DNA from: a virus
Lineage: Duplodnaviria > Heunggongvirae > Uroviricota > Caudoviricetes
Strand: one strand, 5' to 3'
Virus record (IMG/VR): IMGVR_UViG_3300005613_000043
DNA: 64,000 nt
The position numbers were made by a program, and so were the translations under genes. Shown here piece by piece: positions 1,742 through 20,446 of this stretch (position 1 is its first letter; each line of letters opens with the position of its first letter). The notes under the pieces are model-generated. The model saw only the letters and a program-made list of their open reading frames with translations. It did no database searches and was not told the origin of the DNA.

Positions 1742-3369
1742 TATGGATGGACAGGAAAGGCATAATAAAGAAAATAGGAATGTTGGTATTTTTGGTAGTG
1801 ATGGGAATAGAGTTTTCTTTGTTGTATCCAGAAGAAGTCAAAACACAAGAAAAAATAAAACAAATAGAAATCAAATCAACTTATACTCCAACTACTGAAA
1901 CACATTGTAATGATGGAAAGTGTACATTAACTCTTTACTCTGGTTATGCTCCTCATATGTGGGATAAGTTCAAGAATATGAGTTCTCTAAAAGATTATTT
2001 TAATGTAGTTTATTTGAAAAAAGATAAAAGATATAATTTGGAAGTAGAGGATTTTAATTATACTCATATTAAACTTAAACCTATTGTTAAAGATAATAAA
2101 GAATTGAATAAGTTAGTTCCTATAAAAACTGAAGGAAAGGTTCATTTTCATACTTTTAAAAATTTAAATGAAAGACCAACCGTTTTCTTTCAGATGGGTA
2201 ATGTTCTTGCTCATAATTATAGTTTTGGAGAACATTCTACGACTATTATGTTGCAAGAAGCTAATACAGAAAATTTAGATGATAATTATGTTCGTATAGA
2301 AGAAACAACTGATTACAGTGATACAGCATACTTACAGGATTCGTGGGACACAGGTGATGATGAATGGGAATACAGTTCATTTTTCAAATTTGATATAAGT
2401 TCATTGCCCAATGGTGCAACAATAGATAGTTCAGATTTTTATCAGTATTTTTATTACGAATCTCTTGACTCAGGTGAAAGTCTTTATTTGGGAGCATATC
2501 ATGTCTATGATGTTAACTCTTACAACATTTCAGGAGCTGAATGGGCAGAAGATACAATAGATGGAACGAATTATCCAGACGCTTCTGACGAATACAATAC
2601 GACTTATGAATCAACAAACACAATTTCAAATGGAGACTCTGATGCTTGGTATGGGTGGAGCGTAACTAACATGATTGTTAATGAATACAATAAAGCAAAT
2701 AATAATGTTTCGATTTGGATACTTCCCTATGACAAAGGAGGAAGTCCAACTCTTGTTGATTATGTTCGATTTTATTCAAAAGAATATACAACAGACACAA
2801 CACTCCGTCCCTATTTGAACATTACATATTCAACACCCGATACAGAATATCCTCAATACTCATTAAACTCAACAAACTCAACATATGCTGGAAAAATAAT
2901 AACCCATTCTTTATACTGGGAAGACAATGTTGACTTGGATTATACTGATGTTTATTTGGATAATTGTTCGGGTAGTTTGGATTTACTCACAACTGCTTAT
3001 CATGGTGGTGCATCCCCTGCTTGGGTCAATTTTACTGTTGGAATAAATGACACAGTAGGATGTACTGTAAGGTGGTGTGAAGAAACCAATGATACTGCTG
3101 GGAATAAAAACACCACATCTTGTAACAATCCGTTTTCTTATATAACGACATCACCAGACACATGCACTTATTCATCAGGAGATTGGGAAATAGACTGTAA
3201 TGACAATTGCGATGAAACAGGAATAAACATAACAGGGGATTTGAAGATTTATTCAACTGCTTCTGGAACAGTAAATCTAACTAATGTTAACTTTTCAACT
3301 TTTCAAGTCAATGCTACAGATGTTTGTACTATAACTTTAGGAAATCCGTGGAATGCTATGGGATGGTAA
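1735..3369 (+). CDS. secreted protein with DNRLRE-like (disaggregatase-related / carbohydrate-binding-like) domain and a Cys-rich C-terminus
   Basis: N-terminal hydrophobic segment; segment DDNYVRIEETTDYSDTAYLQDS...FFKFDISSLPNGATIDSSDF...WILPYDKGG resembles the DNRLRE-domain pattern; many N-x-S/T sequons. Confidence 0.45.
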   Translation: MLIWMDRKGIIKKIGMLVFLVVMGIEFSLLYPEEVKTQEKIKQIEIKSTYTPTTETHCNDGKCTLTLYSGYAPHMWDKFKNMSSLKDYFNVVYLKKDKRYNLEVEDFNYTHIKLKPIVKDNKELNKLVPIKTEGKVHFHTFKNLNERPTVFFQMGNVLAHNYSFGEHSTTIMLQEANTENLDDNYVRIEETTDYSDTAYLQDSWDTGDDEWEYSSFFKFDISSLPNGATIDSSDFYQYFYYESLDSGESLYLGAYHVYDVNSYNISGAEWAEDTIDGTNYPDASDEYNTTYESTNTISNGDSDAWYGWSVTNMIVNEYNKANNNVSIWILPYDKGGSPTLVDYVRFYSKEYTTDTTLRPYLNITYSTPDTEYPQYSLNSTNSTYAGKIITHSLYWEDNVDLDYTDVYLDNCSGSLDLLTTAYHGGASPAWVNFTVGINDTVGCTVRWCEETNDTAGNKNTTSCNNPFSYITTSPDTCTYSSGDWEIDCNDNCDETGINITGDLKIYSTASGTVNLTNVNFSTFQVNATDVCTITLGNPWNAMGW

Positions 3370-3417
3370 ACAGAAATATTTAACTACATTAAAACATAAT
3401 TAAATAAGGTTGATAAA

Positions 3418-3768
3418 ATGGAAAAAAAAGATTATTCAATGGTTGTTTTATCAACGGTTTTATTGGTAAGTTTAGGATTAAATGTGATGCCAGAACCCAC
3501 ACATTATTGTGATTCCAGAGAACTAAAAGCATATTGTTTTAGCCTTAGCGAGACATTAAAAACATGCTATACACTTCCTAATAATAAAGGAGGCAAGAGA
3601 TGTTCAGAGGGATGGAAAGAACTTATAATTGCTCCAGAAGGAGTGGAAACAGTTCAGGTAGATGCTAATGGAAAAATATGGGAATGTGAGATAAAGGAAG
3701 GAAAGATAAATAAGTATTCAAATTGTTTTTCAGGAAAATATCACGGATACCTTGGGGAATTTATCTAA
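3418..3768 (+). CDS. small secreted cysteine-rich protein
   Basis: signal peptide MVVLSTVLLVSLGLNV; 8 Cys in 116 aa. Confidence 0.35.
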   Translation: MEKKDYSMVVLSTVLLVSLGLNVMPEPTHYCDSRELKAYCFSLSETLKTCYTLPNNKGGKRCSEGWKELIIAPEGVETVQVDANGKIWECEIKEGKINKYSNCFSGKYHGYLGEFI

Positions 3769-3795
3769 TAAAAAAAATAAAATAATTAGACCGAT

Positions 3796-3972
3796 TCATT
3801 CTTCCAATTTTCTAATTACTACTTCTACTTTTTCTCCTTTCTTAAGTTTCAGTTTTCTCGCAGTTGTTCCAGTTTTAGAAAAACTCATTTCTGCTTGATT
3901 TCTTCCAAAATCAAGATGAATTTCAGAGCCGAAACCCATATCAACTTTAGCTTTTAAGATTGCTTCAACCAT
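3796..3972 (-). CDS. 58-aa protein (MVEAILKAKVDMGFGSEIHLDFGRNQAEMSFSKTGTTARKLKLKKGEKVEVVIRKLEE), possible AbrB/SpoVT-like small DNA-binding regulator
   Basis: Below the 60-aa track cut-off; perfect SD AAGGAGGTGA 8 nt upstream of ATG on the minus strand; KxGxxVEV-type C-terminus. Confidence 0.35.
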   Translation of the reverse strand: MVEAILKAKVDMGFGSEIHLDFGRNQAEMSFSKTGTTARKLKLKKGEKVEVVIRKLEE

Positions 3973-4612
3973 TTTTTTTCACCTCCTTATATCCTAATTG
4001 CCGACCTCGAAAGCTTAGGCGATGAATCCTCCGAGCAAAGAGAGAATGACATGGCGCATTCTGACAAAGGGGATAACCCTGCTCTGCAATTTTTTGCCTT
4101 GGTTTTTCGACACTTCATTTGTTAGCCATGCTTGATTAGATGCTTTCTACTTCAGGTCTTTAGCAAGGCTTTAAGATTACTTTCACTTTTTTAGTTCCTA
4201 ACATTGTTCCTATTACCTTTGGAACATAGATGTATTTTTTCTTATCACCAGTGATATTAGTGATAAAGATGAATTCTTTCTCGTCTAATTTTAATATTTC
4301 ATATTTAGTCAAAGGGATAAGACCACCTTTCTTGTTTCTTTTCTTTGGTTTCGAACATACACTTCGGGCAGTAAAACAATTCTGCTATTTTATTCCACTT
4401 CATGTAAGTTTGACATCGTTGGCACTTCATTTAATCAGCAATTTTCTTCCAGATTAAATTATTCCCAAATCTTTTTGCGAAATCCACTACTTCTAACCAT
4501 TCATTAAATTTCATGTCTGTGTCTATTTCGATTTTCATAATCTTATTCTAACTTTTAAGTATATATTCTTTTCTATACCAATTAATTTAAATTCTCGAAT
4601 CATAATTAACTT

Positions 4613-6007
4613 ATGCGAACCGTTAAAGAAATCCTCGATGGGATGAATCAGATTGATTTCGATTTGATAGCATCCCGTGACCCAGTGTTTTTCGGAAGGA
4701 GGGTATTAGGACTAATCATTAAACCGTTCCATGAGGAGTGGATTGATATGTTTATGAATAGTAATTTGACTTGTATCGTTGCTCCAACTGGGCACGGTAA
4801 AACGAATCTAATGGGAATAATGATGTCTTTATGGATAGCGCAGTATCAGCATAACAAAGAAATATTAATTGTATCGAATACGATGGAGCAATCGACTAAG
4901 ATATTAGACAGGATTAAGGATATGATTAGGGATAATGAAATGCTTCAGAATTTGATACCAATAAAGCAACAGGAAAAAACTTGGTCTAAAACCGAAATAC
5001 ACCTTAGAACTGGATGTAAAATTTACTGCAAACCATGCAACCAAAATATTCGAAGTTACCACGTAAACTACCTTTTAGCAGATGAAGTGGCTCAGTATCG
5101 AGACCACCAGGTATTCTTTAAGTGGATTATGACACGTGTTACGTCTAAAATGGGAAAATTAGTTGCAATCACTACTTTTATAGATGAGATGGACCTAGCT
5201 CATAAATTAGTTGGGAAAGAAGGAGAGAAAAGAGGATTTGCATCAAAAGTATATAAAGCAATTGACAAAGAAGGCAATCCATTTTTTCCTGAACTTTACT
5301 CCAAGGAAAGATTACAGGAGATTAAAGAGTCAATTGGCAGTCTGGCATTTGACCGAGAATACCTTAGCAATACTTTATCTATTGAAGACGCATTGTTTCC
5401 GCCTCAGATGGTTGCTTCTTGTTTTAACGAGGAATTAGGCTTCAGCATGAAAGAGGGCGAATACACAGTAATGGGAATTGATATAGCGGTAAGCGCTGGA
5501 GCTACTGCAGATTATTCAGTATTTACTATAGTCGAAAATATAGGCAGGAAGACTTACATAAGGAGAATTGAAAGATACAGGGGAATGCCAATATCTTTTC
5601 AAATTGACAGGATAATCGAACTTCAAAATATTTTCAAGTGCAAGCATATTTATTTAGATTCTAGTTCAATGGGGGAAACATTCGTGCAGGAGCTTAGGCA
5701 GAAAGGTTTGCCAATTACGCCTTGTGATTTCTCATACAAAAATAGAAATGATTACCTGATTAACTTAAGGAGATATATGGATGAAAAAAGGTTAGTAATT
5801 CCTCGAAAATTTGAAGACTCTAAATGCATAACAATGGGAGATATTTTATACGGAGAATTAATCTCATTTGTTGTTACAAAAACTCCAAGCGGGATGGTTA
5901 CTTATAAGACAACCTCTAAACATGATGACTCGGTTTTTAGCCTCGCCCTTGCTATCAAAGGGGCAAGTTCACAGAAAAAATTTATCGACACTTTTTTCGC
6001 TGAGTAG
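4613..6007 (+). CDS. terL: terminase large subunit
   Basis: Walker A IVAPTGHGKT, Walker B LLADEVAQ, C-terminal RNaseH-like nuclease motifs MGIDIAVSAGATADYSVFTIVE and KHDDSVFSLALAI; sits upstream of portal. Confidence 0.88.
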   Translation: MRTVKEILDGMNQIDFDLIASRDPVFFGRRVLGLIIKPFHEEWIDMFMNSNLTCIVAPTGHGKTNLMGIMMSLWIAQYQHNKEILIVSNTMEQSTKILDRIKDMIRDNEMLQNLIPIKQQEKTWSKTEIHLRTGCKIYCKPCNQNIRSYHVNYLLADEVAQYRDHQVFFKWIMTRVTSKMGKLVAITTFIDEMDLAHKLVGKEGEKRGFASKVYKAIDKEGNPFFPELYSKERLQEIKESIGSLAFDREYLSNTLSIEDALFPPQMVASCFNEELGFSMKEGEYTVMGIDIAVSAGATADYSVFTIVENIGRKTYIRRIERYRGMPISFQIDRIIELQNIFKCKHIYLDSSSMGETFVQELRQKGLPITPCDFSYKNRNDYLINLRRYMDEKRLVIPRKFEDSKCITMGDILYGELISFVVTKTPSGMVTYKTTSKHDDSVFSLALAIKGASSQKKFIDTFFAE

Positions 6008-6044
6008 ATAAATTTATTTATACTACTAAGTATAAATTCAATTC

Positions 6045-6431
6045 ATGAAAATAAAATCTATTTTAATTCAAGCTTTAATTTTTCTGAAAGAATTTTTAAA
6101 TAAGGTTTTAGATTTTCTAAAAGAGTCGTTTGTTAAGATTACAAAATCATTTGAAAGATTTAAAAAACAAATCAAAAGAAGGAAAAATAGAATTAAAAAT
6201 AATTTCTCAAAAAAAATAATTAAGGTTAAACTAATACTTGGAAAAATAAAATATGTCCCTTTGCTTCATTTTTTCTTGTTTGTTTTTTCTTATGGTCTGC
6301 TGATTAATTATGTTATTAAAATTCTTTTGAATTTTAAATTTACAATTTTCACCGTGCCTGCGTGGGGAATATTTTATTACTTTATCCGAGAGGAATTGGT
6401 AGGCATAATTAGAAAAATAAAAGGGAGATAA
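6045..6431 (+). CDS. hypothetical basic/hydrophobic small protein
   Basis: ORF track; Lys-rich N-terminus and hydrophobic C-terminus between terL and portal. Confidence 0.3.
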   Translation: MKIKSILIQALIFLKEFLNKVLDFLKESFVKITKSFERFKKQIKRRKNRIKNNFSKKIIKVKLILGKIKYVPLLHFFLFVFSYGLLINYVIKILLNFKFTIFTVPAWGIFYYFIREELVGIIRKIKGR

Positions 6432-7685
6432 ATGAAATTAATATCAGAAACACTTGGTTTGGATAAGGTCTTCTTCTTGGAAGAAGTAGGAGGAGAATCT
6501 GGAGTTCCAGTATCAGTGAAAACTACTCCAGAATTAGTTCGGGTTGAGAAAAAATTCCTTGAGCACATGTATATCGACAATCCTGTAGTTTTCAATTCAA
6601 TAAATAAAACTGTCCAGCTAATAATGTCCGCAGGGCATAAGATAATCGCTAAAGACCCAAAAGTTCAGGCTTTCTATGATGGTTTCATATCTAATATAGG
6701 TTACATGGGGGGAGAGAAGTATTGGGAAGAATTAGTAGAGGGGATGTTCAAGTCCCAAACAATTTTTGGTGACTGTTGGATTGAGAAAATTTTCAATACT
6801 AAGGGGAATAAAATAGTCGACTTAGACGCAATCGACCCAAAGAAGATGGATTATGCCAAAAATGGGATGCAAAAGATAGCTCTTGATAAATTTGGAAACC
6901 CGATTGGATATGCCCAAACGATTCCATACTCAGCGTCTTCACAGATTTCAAAGGTAATCAATCCGCCAAAAAATTCAAATATTCTCTTAATGGGAAACCA
7001 AATCTTCATACCGCCAGAACGGGTTGCCCACTTTAAGCTTTATACTGTCGGTGATGGATTCTACGGGATAGGATTAATCGAGCCTATTTATAAAATTTCA
7101 TCAAGTAAAATTGAAATGGAAAGGGCATTGGTGAATACGGCTTGGAGGGTTCTTTCGCCAACGCCAGTAGCAAAGGTTGGAGACAAAGACCATGAACCAA
7201 GCCCTAATCAGGTTAAAAATATTTTCGATAAGATTAAGAACATGAACTACAAATATGGATTCTCTTTTCCGTATTACAACGATATTCAGTTCTTGGAAGC
7301 CAAGCACCCTGAAAAAGCAAAGGAGCAGTTGACCTATTGGATAGACCAAGAAGTCACTGGAATGGGACTTCCTAAAGCAATTTCTACAGGAAGCGGGGCT
7401 ACTACATCCCGTTCAATCCTTGCAAAACAAATCTTCGTTTCCAAACTTACCTTAAAAGATATAGTCAAGCGGACAATCAGAGGGATAGAGAGTAAAATTT
7501 TCAAGCACGTTTCAAAATTAGAAGGATTCAAAGAAGTTCCAAGGATTGAATGGGGAGAATTAGCATTGGAGGAACTTGATGCTAAAATAAACAGGATTAT
7601 AGGGCTTAAGAAACAAGAACTAATCACTTCTGATGAAAACTTGGAGAACTACTTGAGGAAACTCGAAAACCTGCCAACTAAGTGA
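6432..7685 (+). CDS. portal protein (putative)
   Basis: 417 aa immediately downstream of terL and upstream of head-morphogenesis genes; GGGAG SD; size and position typical. Confidence 0.6.
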   Translation: MKLISETLGLDKVFFLEEVGGESGVPVSVKTTPELVRVEKKFLEHMYIDNPVVFNSINKTVQLIMSAGHKIIAKDPKVQAFYDGFISNIGYMGGEKYWEELVEGMFKSQTIFGDCWIEKIFNTKGNKIVDLDAIDPKKMDYAKNGMQKIALDKFGNPIGYAQTIPYSASSQISKVINPPKNSNILLMGNQIFIPPERVAHFKLYTVGDGFYGIGLIEPIYKISSSKIEMERALVNTAWRVLSPTPVAKVGDKDHEPSPNQVKNIFDKIKNMNYKYGFSFPYYNDIQFLEAKHPEKAKEQLTYWIDQEVTGMGLPKAISTGSGATTSRSILAKQIFVSKLTLKDIVKRTIRGIESKIFKHVSKLEGFKEVPRIEWGELALEELDAKINRIIGLKKQELITSDENLENYLRKLENLPTK

Positions 7686-9457
7686 GTTTCATGGTTAAAA
7701 TAATTGAAAATCTAACGGAGTTTAAAGAGGGAATATACATTTCTGAACCTTTAGGTAGATTGATTGCCGAGGGCGAGAAAACATTAATCGTCAAGAAAAA
7801 GAAATTCTCTTGGGAGAATAAGTTAAAGTATCTAGTATCTGGAGATAAGTGCTACGGGATTATTCAGATTAAGAAGATTTATCCTATAGATATTGATAAG
7901 TTCAGGGAGCTTGAAGATAGACATAAAGTTTCAGAAATTGAGAGGTCAAGATGGTTTCCTAATATTCAGATGTTGTTTGCTTATGATTTTGAAATAGTGG
8001 AGAAATACAAAGAGCCTAAAAAGATTGAATTGCCGAAGGATGTTAAAACTGATATTAAAAATGTGAAATTTTTATCAAAAATTACTTACGAAGAAGAAAG
8101 CAAAATAATTAATGAAAATAAAAAGAAACCAGAAGCATCCAAGCCGCATAAGTTTAAACCCGCTGAGTGGACTCACAAGAATGGTCATCCAAGATGTTTA
8201 ATTTGCGGCGATGAAGAATTAACAGAGGAAGCTTGTAAAGAATTTAACATACCAAAAGGATGGTGTAGGGGGATAGAAAAAGAAATTTTATCCGAAGAAT
8301 ATTCTCCTATTGGTATTTCAGACGACCATGACAAAGGAAGAGCGGTTAAGTGGGAAGAGGTGACCAAATACTGGAAAAAACCAATCAAGCTCGTGGAGGG
8401 GTTCATTCAGTTAATAGGAGGAGTTCCCTCTCATAAAGATGGCTCAACTGGTGACATTGACATATTGATTAGGAAACCCGAACCAAAGGGTTCAGAAGAT
8501 ATGCCTGTTAAGTTCAGGCTGTTCAGGTCATTGCCTCGTGAGTTGGGAAATAGGCTTCATTTTGTTTATGACAAGTTTCACGGACCAATTACTGATAATG
8601 TAAAAGTTTATGATTTAGTCCTGATGCCTATTGAATTGAAAGTTGAGAAGATGGAGATAAATGATTTGAATCAAGAGTCATCTAAAAAGTTAAGATTCGT
8701 TATACAATCACATTTTCGTGGGAAAAGTGAACATTTAGACTTTCGTTTTGAAATGAATGGTCATCTTGAGGGGTGGACGGTTGATGATTTAGTTAAAGGG
8801 GTTATAAAAGAACCAGTCTTAACAGTCGAAGAAGGTAAAAGAATATGTTCGAATAAACAAGCTTCAAAGATTGATTGGGATAAGGGTGAAACAAAAAAAT
8901 TACCTTCTGGTCAACACATGAAGATTTTAACCCAACCTAAGAAAAAACACCCAAAAGATTGGTTAAAAGTTAAAGGAATAGTTCCTATAGGTGAACCTGG
9001 CTCTACTAAACAATATCCAGGTGTGTTTATTATTAGGGATTCAGGGTGGTGGGAAGAAGGAGTTAGAAAACCTGATGTTTACGAATATTTCATTCATGGT
9101 AACAAGCTAAAAGGAATTTATATTTTTATAAAAATATCGACTAAAGGATTGAAGCCGAGAGAAGAGCCATTAAAGGATTCTATGGTATGGTTCTTTTGGA
9201 AGAAAGCTGAACAAGTTCCTTATATGCTTAGTTCAAGAAGTTTGAAAACAAAAACAATTCCACCAATTGGGGTATCATGGCTGCCGAAGAAAATAGAAAA
9301 CTTAATTCCTAAAGATTTGAGGTATTGGATTCCTAATTTATCAATGGAAGACCGATTGAAACGATTGGAAGGAGCGATAGATTTTTGGAAAGGAAGAGAA
9401 ATTGAAATGAGCCATGAATTGGACAAGGTTAAATTTTTAAAAGGGCTTGAGGCATGA
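7682..9457 (+). CDS. multidomain protein: N-terminal ASCH/PUA-like region, pol-beta-type nucleotidyltransferase motif, C-terminal LigD-like 3'-phosphoesterase (PE) domain
   Basis: GGVPSHKDGSTGDIDILIRKPE matches the hG[GS]x(9-13)DhD NTase signature; RFVIQSHFRGKSEHLDFRFEMNGHLEGWTV matches the LigD-PE core FVIQ.H.....H.DFR.E....L.sWAV; ATGA start overlap with the next gene. Confidence 0.5.
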   Translation: MSFMVKIIENLTEFKEGIYISEPLGRLIAEGEKTLIVKKKKFSWENKLKYLVSGDKCYGIIQIKKIYPIDIDKFRELEDRHKVSEIERSRWFPNIQMLFAYDFEIVEKYKEPKKIELPKDVKTDIKNVKFLSKITYEEESKIINENKKKPEASKPHKFKPAEWTHKNGHPRCLICGDEELTEEACKEFNIPKGWCRGIEKEILSEEYSPIGISDDHDKGRAVKWEEVTKYWKKPIKLVEGFIQLIGGVPSHKDGSTGDIDILIRKPEPKGSEDMPVKFRLFRSLPRELGNRLHFVYDKFHGPITDNVKVYDLVLMPIELKVEKMEINDLNQESSKKLRFVIQSHFRGKSEHLDFRFEMNGHLEGWTVDDLVKGVIKEPVLTVEEGKRICSNKQASKIDWDKGETKKLPSGQHMKILTQPKKKHPKDWLKVKGIVPIGEPGSTKQYPGVFIIRDSGWWEEGVRKPDVYEYFIHGNKLKGIYIFIKISTKGLKPREEPLKDSMVWFFWKKAEQVPYMLSSRSLKTKTIPPIGVSWLPKKIENLIPKDLRYWIPNLSMEDRLKRLEGAIDFWKGREIEMSHELDKVKFLKGLEA

Positions 9458-10071
9458 CTGTTAAATTCTACTTATACAGACACTGGTGGAGAGGTGTTGT
9501 ATTGCCTAAACAATCAATTTCTCATTATGATTTAAGGTTTGACGAAGATAGACCCATCCACAGGTATTTTAGGTTAGATAAAGACCCTATGTATTTTACC
9601 AAGAATATAATCAGCGTTGAGGACAAATGCGATGATGAGAGGTGGCTGACTTTTGAGGGGATAATAGAGCCAAAAGATAAAGAAACGAGAAAGTGGCTGA
9701 TTGGGGGGAATCCAAATAAGAAAATAGTTGCTCATGTGGACTTGATTGATTCAGGAAAAGTGAATATACTTTCTGACACTCCGATGTTTATCTCGTTCAT
9801 TTTTTCTGGAAAGGAAATAAAGGGGTATTGGGTAATGAGAGGAGCATCCCCTGAAGAAAAGGTATGGGTTTTTGAGAAGAGCAAACTGCCCAAGAGTTAT
9901 AAGGGAAAAAACTTAGAAGATAAAAGAAACCTTCAGAAAATCCCTCCTGAAATAGAAAAAGAAATAATCAAACTAACCAAAGAAGGAAAATCAAGACCTG
10001 ATATTTCAAAAATAACAAGCACATGCCAAGCTACAGTTTATTACTACCAAAAACAATACGGATTAGTGTGA
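9454..10071 (+). CDS. LigD-PE-like phosphoesterase domain protein with C-terminal helix-turn-helix
   Basis: SISHYDLRFDEDRPIHRYF and ISVEDKCDDERWLTFEGIIEP align to the LigD-PE motifs HYDLRLE and VEDHPLDY.DFEG.IP; C-terminus KLTKEGKSRPDISKITSTCQATVYYY is HTH-like. Confidence 0.5.
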   Translation: MTVKFYLYRHWWRGVVLPKQSISHYDLRFDEDRPIHRYFRLDKDPMYFTKNIISVEDKCDDERWLTFEGIIEPKDKETRKWLIGGNPNKKIVAHVDLIDSGKVNILSDTPMFISFIFSGKEIKGYWVMRGASPEEKVWVFEKSKLPKSYKGKNLEDKRNLQKIPPEIEKEIIKLTKEGKSRPDISKITSTCQATVYYYQKQYGLV

Positions 10072-10090
10072 CTTAGCATATAACGAAACA

Positions 10091-10112
10091 CTTATAAGTT
10101 CAACCCTTATGT
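10091..10112 (+). repeat. 22-bp element cttataagttcaacccttatgt (copy 1) containing the palindrome CTTATAAG and a 5-bp stem / 7-nt loop hairpin
   Basis: identical 22-mer at 22744..22765; TTATAA lies 25-28 nt upstream of the SD-less ATG at 10123. Confidence 0.6.
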
Positions 10113-10122
10113 TTTAATATCT

Positions 10123-11247
10123 ATGTTTGATAAACTCGATATTGGGGAAGTTTCTGGCGATAATATTCTGGATTATCCAGTAGATGAAAAATTAGCGGAA
10201 TCCGTATTTAATTTCGGAATACCGCTTCCATATGTAATTAAAAACGCAATTTTAATTTCTCCTGGAACTTGGAATAAATTTTATTATAATAAAGATTCAA
10301 TCAAAAAAGCCCATCGGATGACCGATTGGGAGGACAAATCAATTAAAAATCTTTATTTAGACCATGCGGATGACAAGACATCCCAATGGGTAGGTAATGT
10401 TTCTAACCTTAAGTGTATTAACGGCACAGAATACGGCGACCTTAACATCTTTGACCCGATTACTGCGGTCAAAATGGCTAAAGGAAAACCCAAATTCGGA
10501 ATAAGCCCACGGGTTAGAGGGCGGGCTGAAGAAGGAATTATGAAAGAGTTTACATTTGAGAACTTCAGCTTTGTAATTAATCCTGCCGTTAAGACAACTT
10601 ATATTAACAATATGGAGGTAAAAACAATGGAATTCAAACTTCAAGAGGAAGGTGAAGCCAAAGTCGAAACCCCAAAACCAGAAGAAGAAACAAAAGAAGA
10701 AGCAAAAGAAGAATTAGCAAAGAAAAAGGAAGAGCCAAAAGAAGAAGAGATGAAAAAAAAGAAAGAACCAGAAGAAGAAGAAATGAAGAAAAAGAAAGAC
10801 TATGGATATCCAAAAGAAGAACTCTCTGAATGGAGCGACAAGATTAAAAAATGGTGCAAAGCACATCCAGGAAAAGGAGTCAAAGAAGCAATAGCGGCAA
10901 TTAAAAAAGAGATGGAAGAAGTCGAAATGGCTTCTGAAGACAAAAGATTCAAAGAAATACTTCAGGAAGTCTTAGAGATAATGAAAAAGAAAACAAAAGA
11001 AGAAGAGCCAGACGAGTATCCATACAAAAAGAAATTATCAGAAATGCAAGAGGAACTCGCAAGCAGAGATAAAGCAATAGAAGAACTTAAAGAACAGACA
11101 ATGAAACTTGAACAAAGGTTAAACAAACCAGCAGAGAGAATAACGGTTAAATCTGAAGAGCCAACAACTCAAATGTTGTCTTATTCAGATGAAAATTTCC
11201 TTGAGTTCTTAAGAGAAGACGGTCAAGGAAAAGCGGAGATGGTATAA
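10123..11247 (+). CDS. head scaffolding protein, possibly fused to an N-terminal prohead-protease-like domain
   Basis: C-terminal half is an E/K-rich predicted coiled coil (EEEMKKKKEPEEEEMKKKK); lies directly upstream of the capsid gene; no SD, TTATAA box 25-28 nt upstream, so possibly leaderless. Confidence 0.5.
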   Translation: MFDKLDIGEVSGDNILDYPVDEKLAESVFNFGIPLPYVIKNAILISPGTWNKFYYNKDSIKKAHRMTDWEDKSIKNLYLDHADDKTSQWVGNVSNLKCINGTEYGDLNIFDPITAVKMAKGKPKFGISPRVRGRAEEGIMKEFTFENFSFVINPAVKTTYINNMEVKTMEFKLQEEGEAKVETPKPEEETKEEAKEELAKKKEEPKEEEMKKKKEPEEEEMKKKKDYGYPKEELSEWSDKIKKWCKAHPGKGVKEAIAAIKKEMEEVEMASEDKRFKEILQEVLEIMKKKTKEEEPDEYPYKKKLSEMQEELASRDKAIEELKEQTMKLEQRLNKPAERITVKSEEPTTQMLSYSDENFLEFLREDGQGKAEMV

Positions 11248-12411
11248 ATGGTTTCATTCAACTTAGAATATAAAGAGGAAAAAAACAAATTCCCTTGGAA
11301 GAGCTATAACTTAGCCACAACTGTTACAGCAGCAAGTACAACAAGAGGTTCATCAAGCGAAACAGTTTATGGTTTGCAACCAATGGGCTTTCTTAAAAAG
11401 TCAATTGACGCAGCAAGAGAAAACATGAGATTCATGGAAGTCGTAAGGCAAGAAGTAATGCCGCCTGGATTCAAAGATTGGGCAATCCCAAAAAGGAAAA
11501 CCTATCTTGCGGATTCGAGCTGGGAAACTTCAGCATCAGAATACGCAGCCCACACAGCATCAGCAGCCACAGGAGAAATAATATGGACAAACATAGACAC
11601 AATGGACAGTGTAATCGTAACTCCTACCAGATATAACTACGGAGTCGCATTAACTAACGATGCAATCAGAAAACATTTACTTAACTTAGTCAATTATGCG
11701 AACGAGGAATTGTCTTACAAATACGAAAACTCAATTGACAATGCAATTAGAGACGCAATATTCGGAACATGCACAACTGGAACAGCAACAGAGCCAACAC
11801 CAATGAGTGATTCAGTTAATGGAGCTCAGACAATTTTCGGCGGAGACGCAACAGATGCCAGTGATAACTTAGATACAGGGGACATATTAACGCCTGAGAT
11901 GATAAAGAAAGCTAAAAGACTTCTAATGAGTACAAAAGGTTACTACTGGGATAGCAATACTCATACAGTTTCATCCACAGCTAAAAATGCTTGGTCGCCA
12001 ACTGATGCAGAGCCATTCGTTCTTTTCGTTGCTCCTGAGCAAATGGAAAGTTTGATGAATGATTCTCAATTCACAAATGCGGCTGAGTTCGGAAGTCAAG
12101 AGCCAGTTTTAACAGGACAGGTAGCAAAATACTGCGGAATTAGGATAATCGAAACTACAAAAGTTCCATCATTTACAGACAACGACAACATAGATGTGCA
12201 AGCATCAAACTTAACAATGGATTTAGATGGTCATATCTGTGCACTGGTTAAGGCACAAAGATGTGGAGCAATGGTTTGGGGACAAAAGGCAGAATTTAAG
12301 ACATTTGACTGGCCTATAGGAGACCAGAAAAGAATGACTTTGAGCATGTCTTATGGAGTAGGCACGATTCACCCCGATGGGATAGTTCGACTAGTCGTAG
12401 CAGATGCTTAG
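11248..12411 (+). CDS. major capsid protein (HK97-fold, putative)
   Basis: 387 aa, follows the scaffold with a TAAATG junction; followed by a T7 tract and hairpins; order terL-portal-scaffold-MCP. Confidence 0.62.
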   Translation: MVSFNLEYKEEKNKFPWKSYNLATTVTAASTTRGSSSETVYGLQPMGFLKKSIDAARENMRFMEVVRQEVMPPGFKDWAIPKRKTYLADSSWETSASEYAAHTASAATGEIIWTNIDTMDSVIVTPTRYNYGVALTNDAIRKHLLNLVNYANEELSYKYENSIDNAIRDAIFGTCTTGTATEPTPMSDSVNGAQTIFGGDATDASDNLDTGDILTPEMIKKAKRLLMSTKGYYWDSNTHTVSSTAKNAWSPTDAEPFVLFVAPEQMESLMNDSQFTNAAEFGSQEPVLTGQVAKYCGIRIIETTKVPSFTDNDNIDVQASNLTMDLDGHICALVKAQRCGAMVWGQKAEFKTFDWPIGDQKRMTLSMSYGVGTIHPDGIVRLVVADA

Positions 12412-12558: not shown

Positions 12559-15501
12559 ATGGCAATTAGAACATCTTACATAAAATGTCATAGAACAGAC
12601 AAAACTTCGACACTTTCTGGAAATTTAGCAGTAACGGGAACTTCAGCATTTACTGGAAATGTAACCTTAACAGGAGACTTAACAATAGGCGGAAGTATGA
12701 CTTTTGGCGATGCTTCTGTAGATACGTTAACTGTCAATGGAACAGCGAGTTTTAATACAAATGCAACATTTACTCTAAGCGATGCAGAAACAGTTACTAT
12801 TGCAGGAACAACAACTGATGACGCTTTGTTGATTTCGGCAGTTGCGACAGATTCTGCAATTGAGGTGAGTAGCGCCAATGCTTATGGGTTAAAACTCAGT
12901 GGAGCAAACACTACAGCAGCGATTGCAATTACTGGAACGAACACAGGAAGAGCTTTAAGAATAGGAACAAAAGAAAGTGCAGCAACTTCACTAACTATTT
13001 CTTCGGGTAAAAGCGTTGATGCAGAACCAGCAAATAACTATTTATTCGGTTTGTTTACAAAAGTAGCAAGCGATGAATCAGCAATAACAGATGAGTTAAG
13101 AAGTGCTTGGATTAGAACAAGAGTCAATGAGGGATGTCATGTAGGTCAAAGTGCTGGATATGGATACGGAGTTTGCGGTGCTGAAATTCAGCTTAAAATA
13201 TATGCTGATGGAGCGGCAACAAATTTGTATTCTTGGCAGAACTCAGCAGTATGGGCACAGTTAGAAACACAAGGAGCTTCAGGGGTAGTATTCAAAGATG
13301 GAAGCAATGTTCAAGCGATTTTAGCTAATGTGGGAATGACAAGTACAACAACAATTAATGATGGAGCAATCGTATCAGGAGTTCTAATCAATACGAACAC
13401 ATCAACAAGTGATGTTACAATAGATTCTGGAGGGCTTTATTACGGTTTATTTGTAACTGATGTAAGTCCTTCTCATTTAGACTTTACAGCAGGAGTAGTG
13501 ATAGACGATGATGTAGCAACTACAGGCATGCAAATCGGAAATTGTACAACAGGAATCAAATTAGATGGAACATTTACGGATGGTATTAGGATGATGGGTG
13601 ACGAAGCTTATAATCCGATACACATTGGTACAAAAGCGAATACAGCAACTGGCGGGCTTAATATGAATGGACAAGATTCATATGATGAGCATGGAGGAAT
13701 AATGATATTTGGCGATGATGGAGGAGTTGCTTTGGCAACTACATATACAACATCATTATTTTGGTCAAGATATCTAATAACAGCAAACCAAACAAGCAAC
13801 ACAGCTACAGGAGCATATCTACAGATGAAGCTTAAAAAAGCTTCAGGAAGTTTGGACCTTACAACTGTTGATTATTCAGCAGCAAAAACATACATTGAAA
13901 CAGACTGTGCGGTTGATGTAAAAAGCGGGGGTTTATTTGTAATAAACTCTACACTTGAAATGGGAGATGACCTTACAAATACAGCAGGAATAGTAGCAGG
14001 AATTAATGTAGAGCTTAATGATGGAACAAATACTCTTACAGATACAGCAGTAAATAGTTCTGGTATTCTTATCAGAAAGAATGCTAGTTCAACAGCTGGA
14101 TGGCCAGTAGGATTAAATATAGAAGCTAGTGGAGCCACAACAGGAATTAAAATTGGAACTTGTACCACTGGAATTAGCATTGGTAATGCACCAACTGGAA
14201 TTACATTTACAGATGTAGGTGCGGCAACAGAACATTTAATTGATGTAGTAGACGCATACACAGGAATGGTAATAGAAACAGGAACATACCAAAGTTCAGC
14301 AGATGGAGGAGTAATATTATCTGATACAAATACGAGACCAGTTAGTTTCTTGTTTGATGATAGTGCAGCCGCATTAACAGGAAATAATAGAGCAGTATTA
14401 TCAAGGATATATCTTGCTGAAAGTCAAGGAAGCGGTGGAACAATTGTTTCAATACAAGGTCAGCTAAAAATTGCTGATGACAAGGATTTCAGTGCTGGAA
14501 GATTCTGTGGAGTTGATGGCTACATGGAATTTGGAGGTACTACGGATATAAATAGCGGTGCTTATGTATCTGCTATAAATGCTAGAATTGATGTACCAGC
14601 AAGTGAAACTGTTGAGGTAAAAACTGGTGGATATTTATGTGGAATACATATACATACAACTGGAACAGGAACATTAACTTCAAGTGGAAATAGTTATGGT
14701 ATTTACATAAATGACCAAGGCACAGTAGACGACTGGGAATATGGTATTAGTGTCAATAACTCTGCAACAGGAATTGAAATCGCTACTTGTGCAACAGATG
14801 GTCTTAGTTTCCCAACAGGAAGTACATATGGAACATCAGCAATTAACATGGGTACTTTCGCAGCACCGATAAGTTATGCTACAACTGGAAAAAAATTGGT
14901 TCAGATGTATGGAGCATATACGGGAACAAGCGGTTCATTTACTGGATTCAGAATGAGAGCAAGAGGAAACAGTGCAAGTGGAACAGCAAGTATAACAAGT
15001 GCTTTGATACAAGCGGATGTTATAGCGAGTAAATATGCACAGGATTGCATCGGATTGAATGTTGAAACAATCGCAAAAGATAGTGCAACATTAGCTTCAG
15101 GAGGATGGTTTAGTGCAGGACAATTTAAAGTAGAAGATGAATATGCAACAGGCGGTTCAGGAAGCGCACCTACTTTTGGCGGGCACGTAGCATGCTTGAG
15201 ATTGATGGGAAACATAAGTGCTAATCCAACTAATACATATACAGCTATATTCATTGATTGTCAATCAGGTACAGGTGGACAAGAAGCTTTTGATAGTTTA
15301 ATCCATGTTCAAGCTTCAGGGCAAAACTCAGCGATAGAACATTTCTTAACAACTGGAGATAGTTATGCAACTTTGTATACAGCAAGCAAGTGGATAGTAA
15401 ATGAAACACCAGATGATGCATTAGGAAGTGCGGCAGGATGTTTAAGGATTGATTTAAATGGAACAGACTATTACATACCATTTTTCGATTCAGTAACATA
15501 A
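12559..15501 (+). CDS. 980-aa Thr/Gly/Ala-rich beta-helical repeat structural protein (head fibre / decoration or fibre protein)
   Basis: No signal peptide; repeated Cys-containing motif IG.CTTGI (QIGNCTTGIKLDG, KIGTCTTGISIGN, EIATCATDGLSF); strong GGAGG SD; 10-bp perfect hairpin 11 nt after the stop. Confidence 0.5.
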   Translation: MAIRTSYIKCHRTDKTSTLSGNLAVTGTSAFTGNVTLTGDLTIGGSMTFGDASVDTLTVNGTASFNTNATFTLSDAETVTIAGTTTDDALLISAVATDSAIEVSSANAYGLKLSGANTTAAIAITGTNTGRALRIGTKESAATSLTISSGKSVDAEPANNYLFGLFTKVASDESAITDELRSAWIRTRVNEGCHVGQSAGYGYGVCGAEIQLKIYADGAATNLYSWQNSAVWAQLETQGASGVVFKDGSNVQAILANVGMTSTTTINDGAIVSGVLINTNTSTSDVTIDSGGLYYGLFVTDVSPSHLDFTAGVVIDDDVATTGMQIGNCTTGIKLDGTFTDGIRMMGDEAYNPIHIGTKANTATGGLNMNGQDSYDEHGGIMIFGDDGGVALATTYTTSLFWSRYLITANQTSNTATGAYLQMKLKKASGSLDLTTVDYSAAKTYIETDCAVDVKSGGLFVINSTLEMGDDLTNTAGIVAGINVELNDGTNTLTDTAVNSSGILIRKNASSTAGWPVGLNIEASGATTGIKIGTCTTGISIGNAPTGITFTDVGAATEHLIDVVDAYTGMVIETGTYQSSADGGVILSDTNTRPVSFLFDDSAAALTGNNRAVLSRIYLAESQGSGGTIVSIQGQLKIADDKDFSAGRFCGVDGYMEFGGTTDINSGAYVSAINARIDVPASETVEVKTGGYLCGIHIHTTGTGTLTSSGNSYGIYINDQGTVDDWEYGISVNNSATGIEIATCATDGLSFPTGSTYGTSAINMGTFAAPISYATTGKKLVQMYGAYTGTSGSFTGFRMRARGNSASGTASITSALIQADVIASKYAQDCIGLNVETIAKDSATLASGGWFSAGQFKVEDEYATGGSGSAPTFGGHVACLRLMGNISANPTNTYTAIFIDCQSGTGGQEAFDSLIHVQASGQNSAIEHFLTTGDSYATLYTASKWIVNETPDDALGSAAGCLRIDLNGTDYYIPFFDSVT

Positions 15502-17145: not shown

Positions 17146-18438
17146 TTGAGATTGGGAATATGTATACCTTTATATAAAACAGTCAGTGCTAAGTTTTTTT
17201 CTAACTTCATCACTCGATTAATGGAATTGTTCAAGCACCCTAATCTTAAGATTGATGTAATTATGGTTACTTCTACCATAGTAGATGAAGCGAGAAATAA
17301 ACTAATTGAACAGGCATTAGATAGAAAATGTGATTTAATTTGGATGATAGATTCAGACTCTATGATTCAAAAAGGCACTTTTGAAAAATTATTAAAACAT
17401 GATGCTGATTTTGTCTCAGGGTTATACTTCTCAAAAGGGTATCCTTTTCATCCTATAGTTAGGGTTGAAAAAGATGGCATGTCTACTTACCTACATGATA
17501 TTGAGTTTGGAAAGGTTTACGAGGTTCAGGGAGTCGGGCTCGGATGCGCATTAGTTAAAACGAGTATATTTGACGGTCTTGAAAAGCCTTATTTTAAATT
17601 TGAATATAAACGGCTTGAGAATGGAATGCTTGATAAGGTTTCTGAAGATATCTACCTATGCAATTCATTAAGAAAGAAAGGAGTTAAGATACTACTTGAT
17701 ACAAACATAATTATAGGGCATGAGGGAGGCACTATCACTGATTTTGAATACAGGGCTAACAAACCATTTTTGGTTAAGATTTCAAAGATGCGAGACCAAG
17801 CATTGGAGGATTATTCAGAATTTGCTAAAATTTCGCTTAAACAAGCATGGGACAATTTCAGATTCGGGCTCTACCTATACGCCGATGAGTTTAATTTATT
17901 CTTTAAGGATAAAAAAATAACTAATGAGAATCTAATAAAATTCTACAAGACGGCTAAATATTCTATTCCTGACTTGCTTTATTGGCATCTTGGAAGCGAG
18001 AAAAAAATGTTTGATACCCAACTGGTTAATTACCTTAAAAATAAATACGATAAAAACATTGAAATTTTAGATTTTGGGTGCGGAGCTGGAATCAATGCTT
18101 CGCAACTATCACAAGAAGGGTTTAAAGTAACTGGAGCTGACCTTGACGGAAAAATGCTCAATTTCTTCAAGTTTAGGTGCAAAAAACATAATATTAAAAT
18201 GAATTTTATCGAACTTCCATTTAAAAAACCAATTAAGAAAAAGTTTGATGTAATTTTAGCCCTAGATGTATTAGAGCATATTCATGACAGCGAGTTTGAA
18301 AACACGATTAACCTTATTAAATCCCTTAAGAAACCAAATGGTGAAGTAATCGTAACCGCTCCATTTGGAAAGACAAGCATTCATCCTATGCATTTTGAGA
18401 ACTCATCAGAAAAAGAAAAAATGATTAGGGAATTATGA
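17146..18438 (+). CDS. bifunctional family-2 glycosyltransferase / class I SAM-dependent methyltransferase
   Basis: N-terminal GT-A features (IPLYK..., DSD DxD motif, LYFSKGYPFHP); C-terminal motif I LDFGCGAGINA and motif DVILALDVLEHI. Confidence 0.7.
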   Translation: MRLGICIPLYKTVSAKFFSNFITRLMELFKHPNLKIDVIMVTSTIVDEARNKLIEQALDRKCDLIWMIDSDSMIQKGTFEKLLKHDADFVSGLYFSKGYPFHPIVRVEKDGMSTYLHDIEFGKVYEVQGVGLGCALVKTSIFDGLEKPYFKFEYKRLENGMLDKVSEDIYLCNSLRKKGVKILLDTNIIIGHEGGTITDFEYRANKPFLVKISKMRDQALEDYSEFAKISLKQAWDNFRFGLYLYADEFNLFFKDKKITNENLIKFYKTAKYSIPDLLYWHLGSEKKMFDTQLVNYLKNKYDKNIEILDFGCGAGINASQLSQEGFKVTGADLDGKMLNFFKFRCKKHNIKMNFIELPFKKPIKKKFDVILALDVLEHIHDSEFENTINLIKSLKKPNGEVIVTAPFGKTSIHPMHFENSSEKEKMIREL

Positions 18439-18916: not shown

Positions 18917-20446
18917 TTATAATCTATGTTGTTCATTTACGGACTCTTTAAAATCAACCCCCTTATACGCTGGTAATCCATTTTTTTTACAAGTTCCACA
19001 TCCAGTTGTTTGTAAAAATATTCTTCCAAACAATATTTGGTTCTCTTCTGATGATTCATTCATTTTACAATAATCCTTATATTTGCTCCACACTTCCCTT
19101 TTAGTGAGTGAGCTATATTCATCTGTAAGAATTATTTCTTCTTCAATAAAAGCATCGATTGAATTTGAGTGTTTTTCCCATAATTTCTTAATATCATGCT
19201 TAGTGAATGGATAATTGCTAAATCCTTTATTTTTTAAAAGGCGTTCTAAACCATCAACAGACCATTTAAATATGCCATCAATTTCTTCGACTAATTCTTC
19301 TTCAAGATTTGGTTTTATTTCTTCTGGTGTCAAAACCTTATTAAATTCAATGTAAATCCATCTTCTGTAGAACTCAAGACCTTTTCGTGGTGTTCTCGGT
19401 AATTTGTTACAACTAAATATTAGTTTGCACATATTTTTGAAAGTAATTTCTGGATGGTTTTTTTTTGCACCTCCACCGTATTTATCACCAGTCATTGAAA
19501 GAAATTTTCCAACATTTTTTAGACCTGAAGCGTCTAAATCAGGGCATATATTGGCGAGTATGTTTTGAAGGTATGCTGATGCGAATGTGTTTTTTGTGAT
19601 ATGTTGGAGTGACATTGTTTTGATATTCCTTTCTCCAAGCATTGTTGATAAGATAGATAACAATGTTGATTTTCCAGTGTTCTCTTTTCCTCTGAGCATT
19701 AAAGCCATTTGAAAACGAATATCTTTTAAAAGACAATATCCAAAAAACTCTTGGATTGTGTCAATCTTCCACTCATCCCCTTCCTTTTCAACAACTCTAT
19801 TTTTTAACCACTCTAAAAATTTTGGACATTCTGCGTCTGAATTGTAGTTTACTGGTAACTTATATGTAAAAAAATACTTTGGGTTGTGGGGAATTATTCC
19901 CAATGTCTCTAAATCTAAAATACCGTTTTCTACAGGGATTTTATTAACTTCGTTATTAATTTCATCTCTATCAATGAACGTTGTATCCCTCACAAAACCA
20001 ACGGTTTCACCAACATGATAATTTTTTGTCTTTTCTCCCAATATCCCTCTAACAGATTGTTTAATCAAATGTTTTCCAAGAACATAGATTCCGTTTTTAT
20101 AAACATGAATTTCTTCCGTATCAGATGGTGTCTTAAAAATATATTTTTCTTTAATTTCATCAGCCATTCGTTTGGGAATGAATCCTTTTAGAGTTTCTTC
20201 ATTCTCAAAATAAATCCCTATATTTTTATTAGGTCTAAGTTCATAGACCACATCTTTAGAATTAAAGACTAAAATATCATCAAGAATTTTTGACACCTCT
20301 AAAGCATCAAACTTCTTTTCTTCTACAAATTCCTTAATCACGTAATCTTTGTCTTTGATTGTATAATACTGTCTCTCCATCATCCATTTAACTAATGAAT
20401 CTTTAATGTTTGTAGTTTCGAGTGGTAGAGTAGTTAATGAACTCAT
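18917..20446 (-). CDS. DNA primase/helicase, D5/P4-type (SF3 NTPase C-terminal domain)
   Basis: Walker A LMLRGKENTGKSTLLSILSTMLGERN followed by IFSCNKLP motif-C-like segment; overall architecture of phage/plasmid primase P4 C-terminal family. Confidence 0.62.
   Translation of the reverse strand: MSSLTTLPLETTNIKDSLVKWMMERQYYTIKDKDYVIKEFVEEKKFDALEVSKILDDILVFNSKDVVYELRPNKNIGIYFENEETLKGFIPKRMADEIKEKYIFKTPSDTEEIHVYKNGIYVLGKHLIKQSVRGILGEKTKNYHVGETVGFVRDTTFIDRDEINNEVNKIPVENGILDLETLGIIPHNPKYFFTYKLPVNYNSDAECPKFLEWLKNRVVEKEGDEWKIDTIQEFFGYCLLKDIRFQMALMLRGKENTGKSTLLSILSTMLGERNIKTMSLQHITKNTFASAYLQNILANICPDLDASGLKNVGKFLSMTGDKYGGGAKKNHPEITFKNMCKLIFSCNKLPRTPRKGLEFYRRWIYIEFNKVLTPEEIKPNLEEELVEEIDGIFKWSVDGLERLLKNKGFSNYPFTKHDIKKLWEKHSNSIDAFIEEEIILTDEYSSLTKREVWSKYKDYCKMNESSEENQILFGRIFLQTTGCGTCKKNGLPAYKGVDFKESVNEQHRL

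Follow-up and report, generated by a model that had tools for sequence, protein, structure and literature searches.

Bacterial LigD and the stand-alone archaeal phosphoesterases, represented by the structures of PaePE (3n9b), CkoPE (3p4h), MbaPE (3p43) and the M. paludicola enzyme (5dmp), possess a 3'-phosphoesterase (PE) domain in which two His residues and an Asp bind manganese, an Arg and a His bind the phosphate, and a Tyr is added to the active site (PMC3082917). In MbaPE these roles are played by H36, H42 and D44 (manganese), R46 and H78 (phosphate) and Y82, and the Y82A variant retained partial activity (PMC3082917). Here we describe two overlapping genes in a viral stretch of 64,000 nucleotides (IMG/VR record IMGVR_UViG_3300005613_000043, Caudoviricetes; the whole stretch is called the window below), situated directly downstream of the portal gene. 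Their products of 591 and 205 amino acids (aa) each contain a domain homologous to the LigD 3'-phosphoesterase, named PE1 and PE2, respectively. Judged from the sequences, the pair is best read as a split, ligase-less version of a large LigD-like DNA-end repair family of archaeal tailed viruses.

Joining of phage genome ends by LigD has a precedent. Mycobacteriophage genomes are reportedly circularized by non-homologous end joining (NHEJ) with the use of phage Ku and host LigD, as Pitcher et al. are said to have found in 2006, so that a tailed virus would apply LigD-type joining to the ends of its genome shortly after entering the cell. The two cases differ in the division of labor: there the phage gives Ku and the host gives LigD, whereas the window virus would give the end-processing domains, and its relatives the ligase as well.

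The second described group to which the locus may be compared comprises the polyvalent proteins (Iyer et al. 2017, PMC5512222), i.e., the MuF- or portal-fused effectors and the P1 Dar-type proteins. As in the family presented here, many enzymatic or binding domains are combined in one head-module protein, the proteins adjoin or are fused with portal or MuF-type modules, DNA methylases are frequent partners, and the products are predicted to travel with the DNA. The survey of these proteins does not mention LigD-type PE, ASCH or XkdF domains, and none of its three uses of the word ligase refers to a DNA ligase (PMC5512222). Unlike the surveyed set, the LigD-like head family is hardly represented in the phage records of GenBank: a homologue was found in one of the 50,697 phage/virus records, that of ANMV-1 (KP703175.1). 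Its 866-aa protein AJP62006.1 (3200-5800), labelled "ATP-dependent DNA ligase", actually consists of a nucleotidyltransferase (NTase), a ligase, a PE and a conserved tail (CT) domain, and the preceding AJP62005.1 (1913-3193), labelled "MutT-like phage hydrolase", is the portal protein (Phage_portal_3, E 3e-22); both annotations thus look incorrect or incomplete. AJP62006.1 represents the same family, lies directly downstream of the portal gene and comes from a virus of an archaeal host. It differs from the window protein in that the ligase is kept, the ASCH domain and the His/Cys module are absent, the identity is approximately 30% and no separate PE2-HTH (helix-turn-helix) gene was detected. 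In the literature on LigD or phosphoesterases with phage capsids, or on the ANMV-1 ligase, no description of the LigD-like head family was found. The family appears to be so far undescribed, and the window member is its unusual ligase-less split form.

The five modules of the 591-aa protein were mapped with the help of homologues and local hidden Markov models (HMMs). The gene pair and its domains are as follows (all on the + strand).

7682..9457, +, five-module gene for the 591-aa protein (ASCH, His/Cys module, NTase-like domain, PE1, CT), with a GTG start at 7682 or an ATG start at 7691
7706..8071, +, ASCH (PUA-like) domain, residues 9-130, from Pfam and PDB profile matches
8069..8251, +, His/Cys module of 60 aa, residues 130-190, HKFKPAEWTHKNGHPRCLICG...C
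8279..8671, +, Pol-beta-superfamily-like minimal nucleotidyltransferase, residues 200-330, with I-G246-G247-x10-D258-I-D260-ILI, R279, R282, R291 and G301-P302
8672..9238, +, PE1, LigD-type 3'-phosphoesterase, residues 331-519, with H344, R346, H351, D353, R355, K420, H423 and W427
9182..9418, +, CT, conserved tail domain, residues 501-579, W..PYxLSxRA..PPxGxSxLP..P..RYW
9454..10071, +, PE2-HTH gene with a product of 205 aa, overlapping the 591-aa gene by ATGA
9457..9903, +, PE2, paralogous PE-like domain, residues 2-150, with H10, H24, D26, R28, K58, W64 and Asp60
9934..10065, +, C-terminal helix-turn-helix (HTH), residues 161-204, from AlphaFold2 (AF2) helices and weak HTH_28/23/7 matches

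The two open reading frames (ORFs) of 591 and 205 aa between the portal and the scaffold/capsid genes had been noticed in an original prediction made from the letters of the sequence, and both they and the ATGA overlap that couples them were confirmed, with a GAGG motif just upstream of the overlap. The GTG start at 7682 overlaps the portal stop codon; gene callers prefer the ATG at 7691, which gives a product of 588 aa identical to P0001 of a 44-kb ENA contig. The motif strings quoted in that prediction were all found in the proteins named: GGVPSHKDGSTGDIDILIRKPE corresponds to residues 246-267 and RFVIQSHFRGKSEHLDFRFEMNGHLEGWTV to residues 338-367 of the 591-aa protein, HYDLRFDE to residues 24-31 and VEDKCDDERWLTFEGIIEP to residues 55-73 of the 205-aa protein. 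It overlooked the ASCH domain, the His/Cys module, the tail domain and the membership of the pair, as a ligase-less split form, in an NTase-ligase-PE-PE2 family.

PE1 is, by its profile matches and residues, a real but distant homologue of the LigD 3'-phosphoesterase, in agreement with the LigD phosphoesterase core originally proposed for the 591-aa protein. It was recognized by NCBIfam TIGR02777 (E 6e-10) and by Pfam LigD_N (E 4.1e-5, model positions 5-107 of 107), and in the PDB it matched MbaPE (3p43, E 4.4e-5) and the PE domain of PaeLigD (3n9b, E 0.009); the profile of the PE1 family matched CkoPE (3p4h, E 8.9e-5). The Mn-binding residues H344, H351 and D353 were invariant in the alignment of 130 family members, K420 was likewise present in all 130, and R346 (129/130), R355 and W427 (125/130 each) were nearly so. 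R355 and H423 of the window protein align with the canonical phosphate-binding Arg and His positions, so that five of the six published active-site residues are kept. Checking the His, Asp, Arg and Tyr positions had been proposed earlier; the His-His-Asp-Arg-His set proved to be intact and the Tyr replaced by Trp. PE1 has an insert of approximately 35 aa between its two motifs, and the second motif of the family reads K-x2-[EQH]-P-x2-W-L versus the canonical E-D-H-P-x2-Y. This 130-member conservation pattern suggests a distinct PE branch with an altered second motif, in which the window PE1 happens to retain the canonical His. PE1 thus departs from the LigD PEs in its 35-aa insert, in the Trp in place of Tyr and in the invariant Lys420, and most family members lack the canonical His. 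The PE1 motif was retained in 134 of 142 relatives. In the closest ASCH-PE-CT relative, the NTase-less P0004 (L002, 6001-7206), both R346 and R355 are lost (HFMGKAAHVDLFFE), which suggests that this particular PE is inactive or altered.

The second PE core, claimed for the 205-aa protein, was upheld as a paralogous PE-like domain, less so as a canonical active site. Comparison of the PE2 and PE1 families with hhalign gave a probability of 97.8% (E 1.1e-12, 134 columns), and the PE2 profile matched CkoPE (3p4h, 9.4e-4) and the M. paludicola PE (5dmp, 7.2e-3). Among the six-frame ORFs of the window, the PE HMM picked up the 205-aa protein with E 1.3e-7, a value which, as for all local HMM searches here, refers to a small custom set. 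The relationship is visible to profile methods only; when the two proteins were aligned directly with BLAST, the match stayed short of significance (E 0.23-0.25). K58 is invariant in PE2; Asp60 occupies the phosphate-binding His position and Trp64 the Tyr position, so the catalytic set is incomplete. The HTH at the C-terminus, also noted originally, was corroborated. The AF2 model of the 205-aa protein, built on an alignment of eight sequences (only seven close homologues were found), had a predicted local distance difference test score (pLDDT) of 42.8 and was confident in the HTH alone, where helices 165-176, 181-188 and 192-201 formed a block with pLDDT of 71-97. HTH_23, HTH_28 and HTH_7 matches are carried by the homologues P0034 and P0035.

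An exhaustive HMMER search, with homologues counted as representatives of 50%-identity clusters, returned at least 1,705 homologues with the threshold set to E ≤ 1e-3, of which 242 also passed E ≤ 1e-30; among the matches listed, most were 900-2,300 aa long. The architectures were surveyed with local HMMs in 175 homologues, 149 of which contained PE. The CT domain followed PE1 in 146 of the 149, and a match of CT to any known family was not obtained. An NTase in the same chain was found in 113, a LigD-like ATP-dependent DNA ligase in 112, PE2 in the same polypeptide in 108, and 36 ended in the XkdF putative head protease domain (PF14550). DNA_ligase_A_M lay between the NTase and the PE in all ten relatives scanned with Pfam, the KxDG motif was kept in 91 of 108 ligase domains, and the ligase of the L007 relative was best matched by NHEJ/LigD ligase models (TIGR02779, E 1.5e-20). 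With NT and LIG standing for the NTase and ligase domains, the dominant architecture was (ASCH)-NT-LIG-PE-CT-PE2(-XkdF). A high-GC subgroup showed (ASCH)-NT-PE-CT-PE2-LIG-XkdF, which is the window order with a terminal ligase and XkdF added, and relatives have up to eight or more modules, including D12 methylase and PAPS-reductase domains. Since one relative (L010) encodes NT-LIG-PE-CT-PE2HTH in a single protein of 1082 aa, the window gene pair seems to be the split of a single functional unit.

As in LigD, a PE is joined in the relatives to an ATP-dependent ligase of the LigD-like kind and to a domain for nucleotide addition, so that they follow the same three-activity logic. Unlike LigD, the window pair is devoid of ligase, AEP domain and Ku, and a Pol-beta-like domain of approximately 130 aa would take the nucleotide-adding role; AEP primase-polymerase and Ku were absent from the Pfam and NCBIfam matches of both proteins and of the large window ORFs. 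A second PE-like domain, CT, ASCH and HTH have been added, and the genes are viral and placed in the head module.

Residues 200-330 of the 591-aa protein probably belong to the Pol-beta-like nucleotidyltransferase superfamily. The domain was found in 95 of the 182 collected proteins with the conserved pattern LVGG-x9-10-DIDILI ... FRxxRxLP ... R ... GPFT ... YDL. In an alignment of 40 sequences G246, D258 and R279 were invariant and D260, R282, P285, R291, G301 and P302 were conserved in at least 90%. The pattern agrees with the superfamily signature hG[GS]-x9-13-Dh[DE]h and aligns to G179-S180...D190-x-D192 of Pol beta. An NTase signature had been claimed earlier, and the quoted string is present and satisfies the superfamily signature; its register "GS-x-GDIDILI" (GS at 254-255) was rejected, the conserved glycines being G246-G247, ten residues before D258. 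All 59 matches of the NTase profile in the PDB (best E 0.085) were either Pol X enzymes (Pol beta palm, African swine fever virus (ASFV) Pol X, TdT) or a minimal nucleotidyltransferase, with the motif in register, and the Pfam matches among the NTase members, all sub-threshold, were DNA_pol_B_palm, NTP_transf_2, Polbeta and DUF6932. The AF2 model based on the 40 sequences (pLDDT 89.3, predicted template modelling score 0.74) showed the expected order of strand, GG, short helix, strand with DxD, helix, strand and strand. The top Foldseek matches were 2rff and MNT antitoxins in the PDB (E 0.4-1) and a "Polymerase beta nucleotidyltransferase domain" protein among viral models (E 0.063). The window NTase has in common with Pol X and the minimal nucleotidyltransferases (Pol beta palm, ASFV Pol X and MNT antitoxins, e.g., HI0073) the G-[GS]-x9-10-D-x-D signature and the strand-short helix-strand core, and all top profile and fold matches fall into this superfamily. 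A homologue search with the NTase profile yielded only three short proteins without annotation. A complete Pol X polymerase was ruled out, as the domain has approximately 130 aa and the model presents the minimal strand-helix-strand core with no fingers or thumb.

The nearest structural neighbours of the domain are the MNT antitoxins and aminoglycoside nucleotidyltransferases, and the Pol-beta NTases of polyvalent phage proteins were proposed to be protein modifiers (PMC5512222). Both facts would suit an NTase that modifies proteins or small molecules, through AMPylation or by making or degrading a nucleotide signal, and that serves as a counter-defence effector unrelated to the PE. We consider such a role very improbable: in 113 of the 149 PE-containing relatives the NTase is part of the same chain, in the dominant architectures it directly precedes the DNA ligase or PE1, and its best profile matches are the Pol X palms with an identical G-[GS]-x9-DxD spacing. 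The earlier suggestion of a role in cyclic-nucleotide signalling was unsupported and has been abandoned.

The position of the genes and the fusions of their relatives connect the family with the virus head. The gene follows the portal gene directly in the window and at six further loci (L002, L006, L007, L008, L011 and ANMV-1, i.e., L012), and in the high-GC L013 and L018 a portal-like ORF lies upstream of it at a distance of 1.4-1.9 kb. In L002 the order is TerL, a 100-aa ORF, portal, ASCH-PE-CT, PE2HTH, scaffold and capsid; in L006 it is portal, ASCH-NT-NT-LIG, PE-CT-PE2 and Peptidase_S78. In L011 the portal protein itself (3198-4811) carries a C-terminal ASCH domain (residues 418-539), and the next protein, of 1374 aa (5286-9410), begins with a PAPS-reductase domain, to which NT-LIG-Zn-PE-CT-PE2 is added. 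In L008 the post-portal protein starts with a D12 methylase. The gene after this polyvalent protein (L008, 8782-10089) encodes a PE2 fused to a second DNA-ligase domain, and an HTH lies in an overlapping ORF (9896-10225), an arrangement that a frameshift or an assembly error could explain. All names that the relatives bear are those of archaea (Heimdallarchaeota, Nitrosopumilus, Aenigmatarchaeota and, as the recorded host of ANMV-1, an uncultured archaeon), the hosts being inferred from binning and record names only. The archaeal-virus setting suspected in the original prediction agrees with the L007 contig from Guaymas binned to Aenigmatarchaeota, with the Heimdallarchaeota-named protein and with the ANME-1 virus ANMV-1.

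The two N-terminal modules of the 591-aa protein recur in other head proteins or in the portal. The assignment of residues 9-130 to ASCH is solid at the level of sequence profiles: the isolated N-terminus (residues 1-130) scored 23.8 bits against the Pfam ASCH model (PF04266; gathering score 21.2), and the ASCH family profile matched 2dp9 (E 3.3e-8) and 1wk2 (E 3.9e-8) in the PDB over the full length. ASCH domains are predicted RNA-binding modules. The His/Cys module, with the pattern ...ETExIxxNKKKPEAxKxHKFKxAxWTHxNGHPRCLICGDEE...C, is the best-conserved stretch of the 591-aa protein and had no matches in Pfam or PHROG. It was 55-77% identical in otherwise unrelated head proteins, such as portal-MuF fusions, XkdF proteins and methylase fusions; in P0014 it is situated (478-541) between a portal domain (65-437) and a MuF domain (668-780), and P0010 has two copies (674-740 and 748-829). 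The module may bind zinc or may act as a head-targeting or linker element.

In PBSX-type phages the XkdF gene lies between the portal and capsid genes. As relatives of the 591-aa protein are fused to XkdF, which is a putative head protease in Pfam, presence inside the procapsid is implied, and, taking into account that the gene follows the portal gene and that relatives are fused to XkdF or portal, the module is most likely situated in the procapsid or at the portal.

The homologies of the domains, the conserved residues, the fusions and the order of the genes are observed; from these we infer that the proteins are active enzymes, that they act on DNA and that they are encapsidated. The reading that we favor, by a modest degree of confidence, is a head-associated module for 3'-end healing and tailing that acts on the viral genome ends and, in this virus, depends on a host ligase. 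PE1 as a Mn-dependent phosphoesterase would heal 3' ends by stripping the 3'-phosphate or 3'-ribonucleotides, by analogy with LigD (PMC3082917), and the small Pol-beta-type NTase would extend the healed 3'-OH with nucleotides. PE2-HTH would grip the DNA and, in the window clade, might be catalytic too, and the ASCH domain and His/Cys module may help to bind nucleic acids or to connect the protein with the head. Sealing would be performed by the fused LigD-type ligase in most relatives and by a host or other ligase in the case of the window virus. The module might act on the genome ends at entry (repair or circularization, counter-nuclease) or at packaging. A more ambitious form of the idea, which we put forward tentatively, is a capsid- or portal-borne, self-contained LigD-like end-joining machine, in which the minimal NTase replaces the primase-polymerase and is combined with a ligase of LigD type and with two PEs, one active and one degenerate. 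It would be delivered with the genome to heal, tail and join the viral DNA ends on entry; the window variant would then be its healing and tailing half, with the host sealing the ends. Such a machine would be a type of packaged viral DNA-repair cargo not seen before and a second, independent route to a LigD.

A number of results weigh against the healing and tailing reading as regards catalysis, sealing and the location in the head. None of the fold or profile matches of the NTase was individually significant, though all agreed on the superfamily, and no third catalytic carboxylate was clearly conserved, D297 (HFxYD) and D311 (YDL) being common and not invariant. PE1 scored under the curated cut-offs (24.1 versus 31.1 bits in Pfam, 39.1 versus 144 for TIGR02777), which makes it a distant branch and not an equivalog. 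Position 423 is His in just 8 of the 130 family members and mostly Glu or Gln in the others, hence the chemistry of the PE1 family may differ from that of the LigD PE. Trp427 stands at the active-site Tyr position, which need not disqualify PE1, as MbaPE Y82A was partly active. The catalytic motif of PE2 was retained in about 21-24 of 91 relatives, H-x-D-x-R in only 21 of them. Compared with the 134 of 142 for PE1, this suggests that PE2 is under relaxed catalytic constraint generally, with an intact motif in the window clade.

The replacement of the canonical PE1 His across most of the family, the degenerate PE2 motif in most relatives, the lost ligase and the absence of R346 and R355 in P0004 would all be expected if the two products were largely non-catalytic minor head proteins, in which the PE and NTase folds serve as DNA-end-binding or structural modules, e.g., to hold the end of the genome at the portal, once the ligase had been lost. 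We find this improbable, because the window PE1 has its metal ligands and both phosphate-binding residues, the NTase its DxD and PE2 its His-His-Asp-Arg all intact. Like the retention of the PE1 motif in 134 relatives out of 142, these intact residues speak for selection that acts on catalysis.

As to sealing, no ligase was found in the whole 64-kb window by tblastn and HMM searches, so a heal-fill-seal pathway could not be finished by the virus alone. As to location, portal, MuF and XkdF domains are all missing from the 591-aa protein itself, and the 374-aa protein encoded downstream, tested as an XkdF equivalent, showed no detectable XkdF similarity. The same enzymes could accordingly work unpackaged, in late cytoplasmic tidying of concatemer ends, nicks and gaps before or during packaging, with the portal adjacency reflecting co-expression only; gene order alone does not prove encapsidation, and, from the architectures, a ligase together with end healing would suit the sealing of nicks before packaging. 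This explanation is unlikely in our view. In 36 of the 149 relatives the XkdF head-protease domain is part of the same polypeptide, one portal carries ASCH, the His/Cys module recurs in portal-MuF fusions, and such features are typical of head-internal polyvalent proteins (PMC5512222).

The reading of a module working on viral DNA ends has also to be set against RNA repair as a counter-defence. Here the PE would heal RNA with 3'-phosphate or 2',3'-cyclic-phosphate ends, the NTase would restore the 3' termini like a CCA-adding enzyme or a poly(A) polymerase, ASCH would bind RNA, and the ligases of the relatives would seal tRNA or mRNA cut by host ribonucleases, as with Pnkp/Rnl of phage T4. The well-supported ASCH domain, weak matches of some relatives' ligases to Pfam RNA_ligase, and the presence of CCA-adding enzymes and poly(A) polymerases among the NTase fold matches are in line with this idea. 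Nevertheless, it seems to us improbable, since models of ATP-dependent DNA ligases and of NHEJ/LigD ligases describe the ligases much better than those of RNA ligases do, the partner domains in relatives are DNA-directed (D12 adenine methylase, PAPS-reductase-type), PE2 bears a DNA-binding HTH, and the known PE enzymes use DNA primer-templates (PMC3082917).

Should the healing and tailing of viral DNA ends in the head be confirmed, a large group of uncultivated archaeal viruses would possess a DNA-end repair kit of their own in the head module, extending the idea of polyvalent proteins to archaeal viruses. In this family nature would have invented LigD anew, using a minimal enzyme of the Pol-beta fold to add nucleotides, and the kit would offer viruses a way to protect or circularize incoming genomes in hosts in which end joining is poorly known. 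The PE branch, in which the His is mostly replaced and a Lys is invariant, is well suited for testing the PE mechanism, and the compact ligase/phosphatase/tailing fusions are potential enzyme tools.

The gene pair is embedded in the head module of the window, whose remaining genes are listed below.

4613-6007, TerL gene
between the TerL and portal genes, ORF of 128 aa
6432..7685, +, portal gene, directly 5' of the 591-aa gene (Portal_Mu, E 7.4e-6; phrog_9232, E 4e-8)
10123..11247, +, scaffold-like gene of 374 aa, directly downstream of the 205-aa gene, with an N-terminal domain and a highly charged coiled-coil
11248..12411, +, major capsid protein gene (Phage_capsid_3 and several major-head PHROGs)

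The nearest GenBank relative of the capsid protein comes from an Altiarchaeum virus. Directly after the capsid gene, positions 12559-15501 (+) encode a 980-aa Ala/Gly/Thr-rich repetitive protein without a family assignment, possibly a fibre or decoration protein of the head.

Elsewhere in the window, an intein (Intein_splicing, E 1.7e-30) that includes a homing endonuclease of the LAGLIDADG_3 type is encoded in a 664-aa ORF (50137-53609, -), and adjacent overlapping ORFs encode an intein fragment and an HTH_23 domain. Free-standing endonuclease genes include one of the homing-endonuclease type with LAGLIDADG_1 and HTH_7 (21913-22740, -) and one of the HNH type (56452-57285, -). A S-adenosylmethionine-dependent methyltransferase (17146-18438, +), a D5_N/DUF5906 primase-helicase (18917-20446, -) and an N6/N4 DNA methylase (40801-41658, -) were also identified, together with an SPFH/Band 7 protein (43136-43993, -; E 2.6e-31), an unusual viral cargo. 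Finally, gene orientation and GC skew flip at approximately 38 kb of the window.

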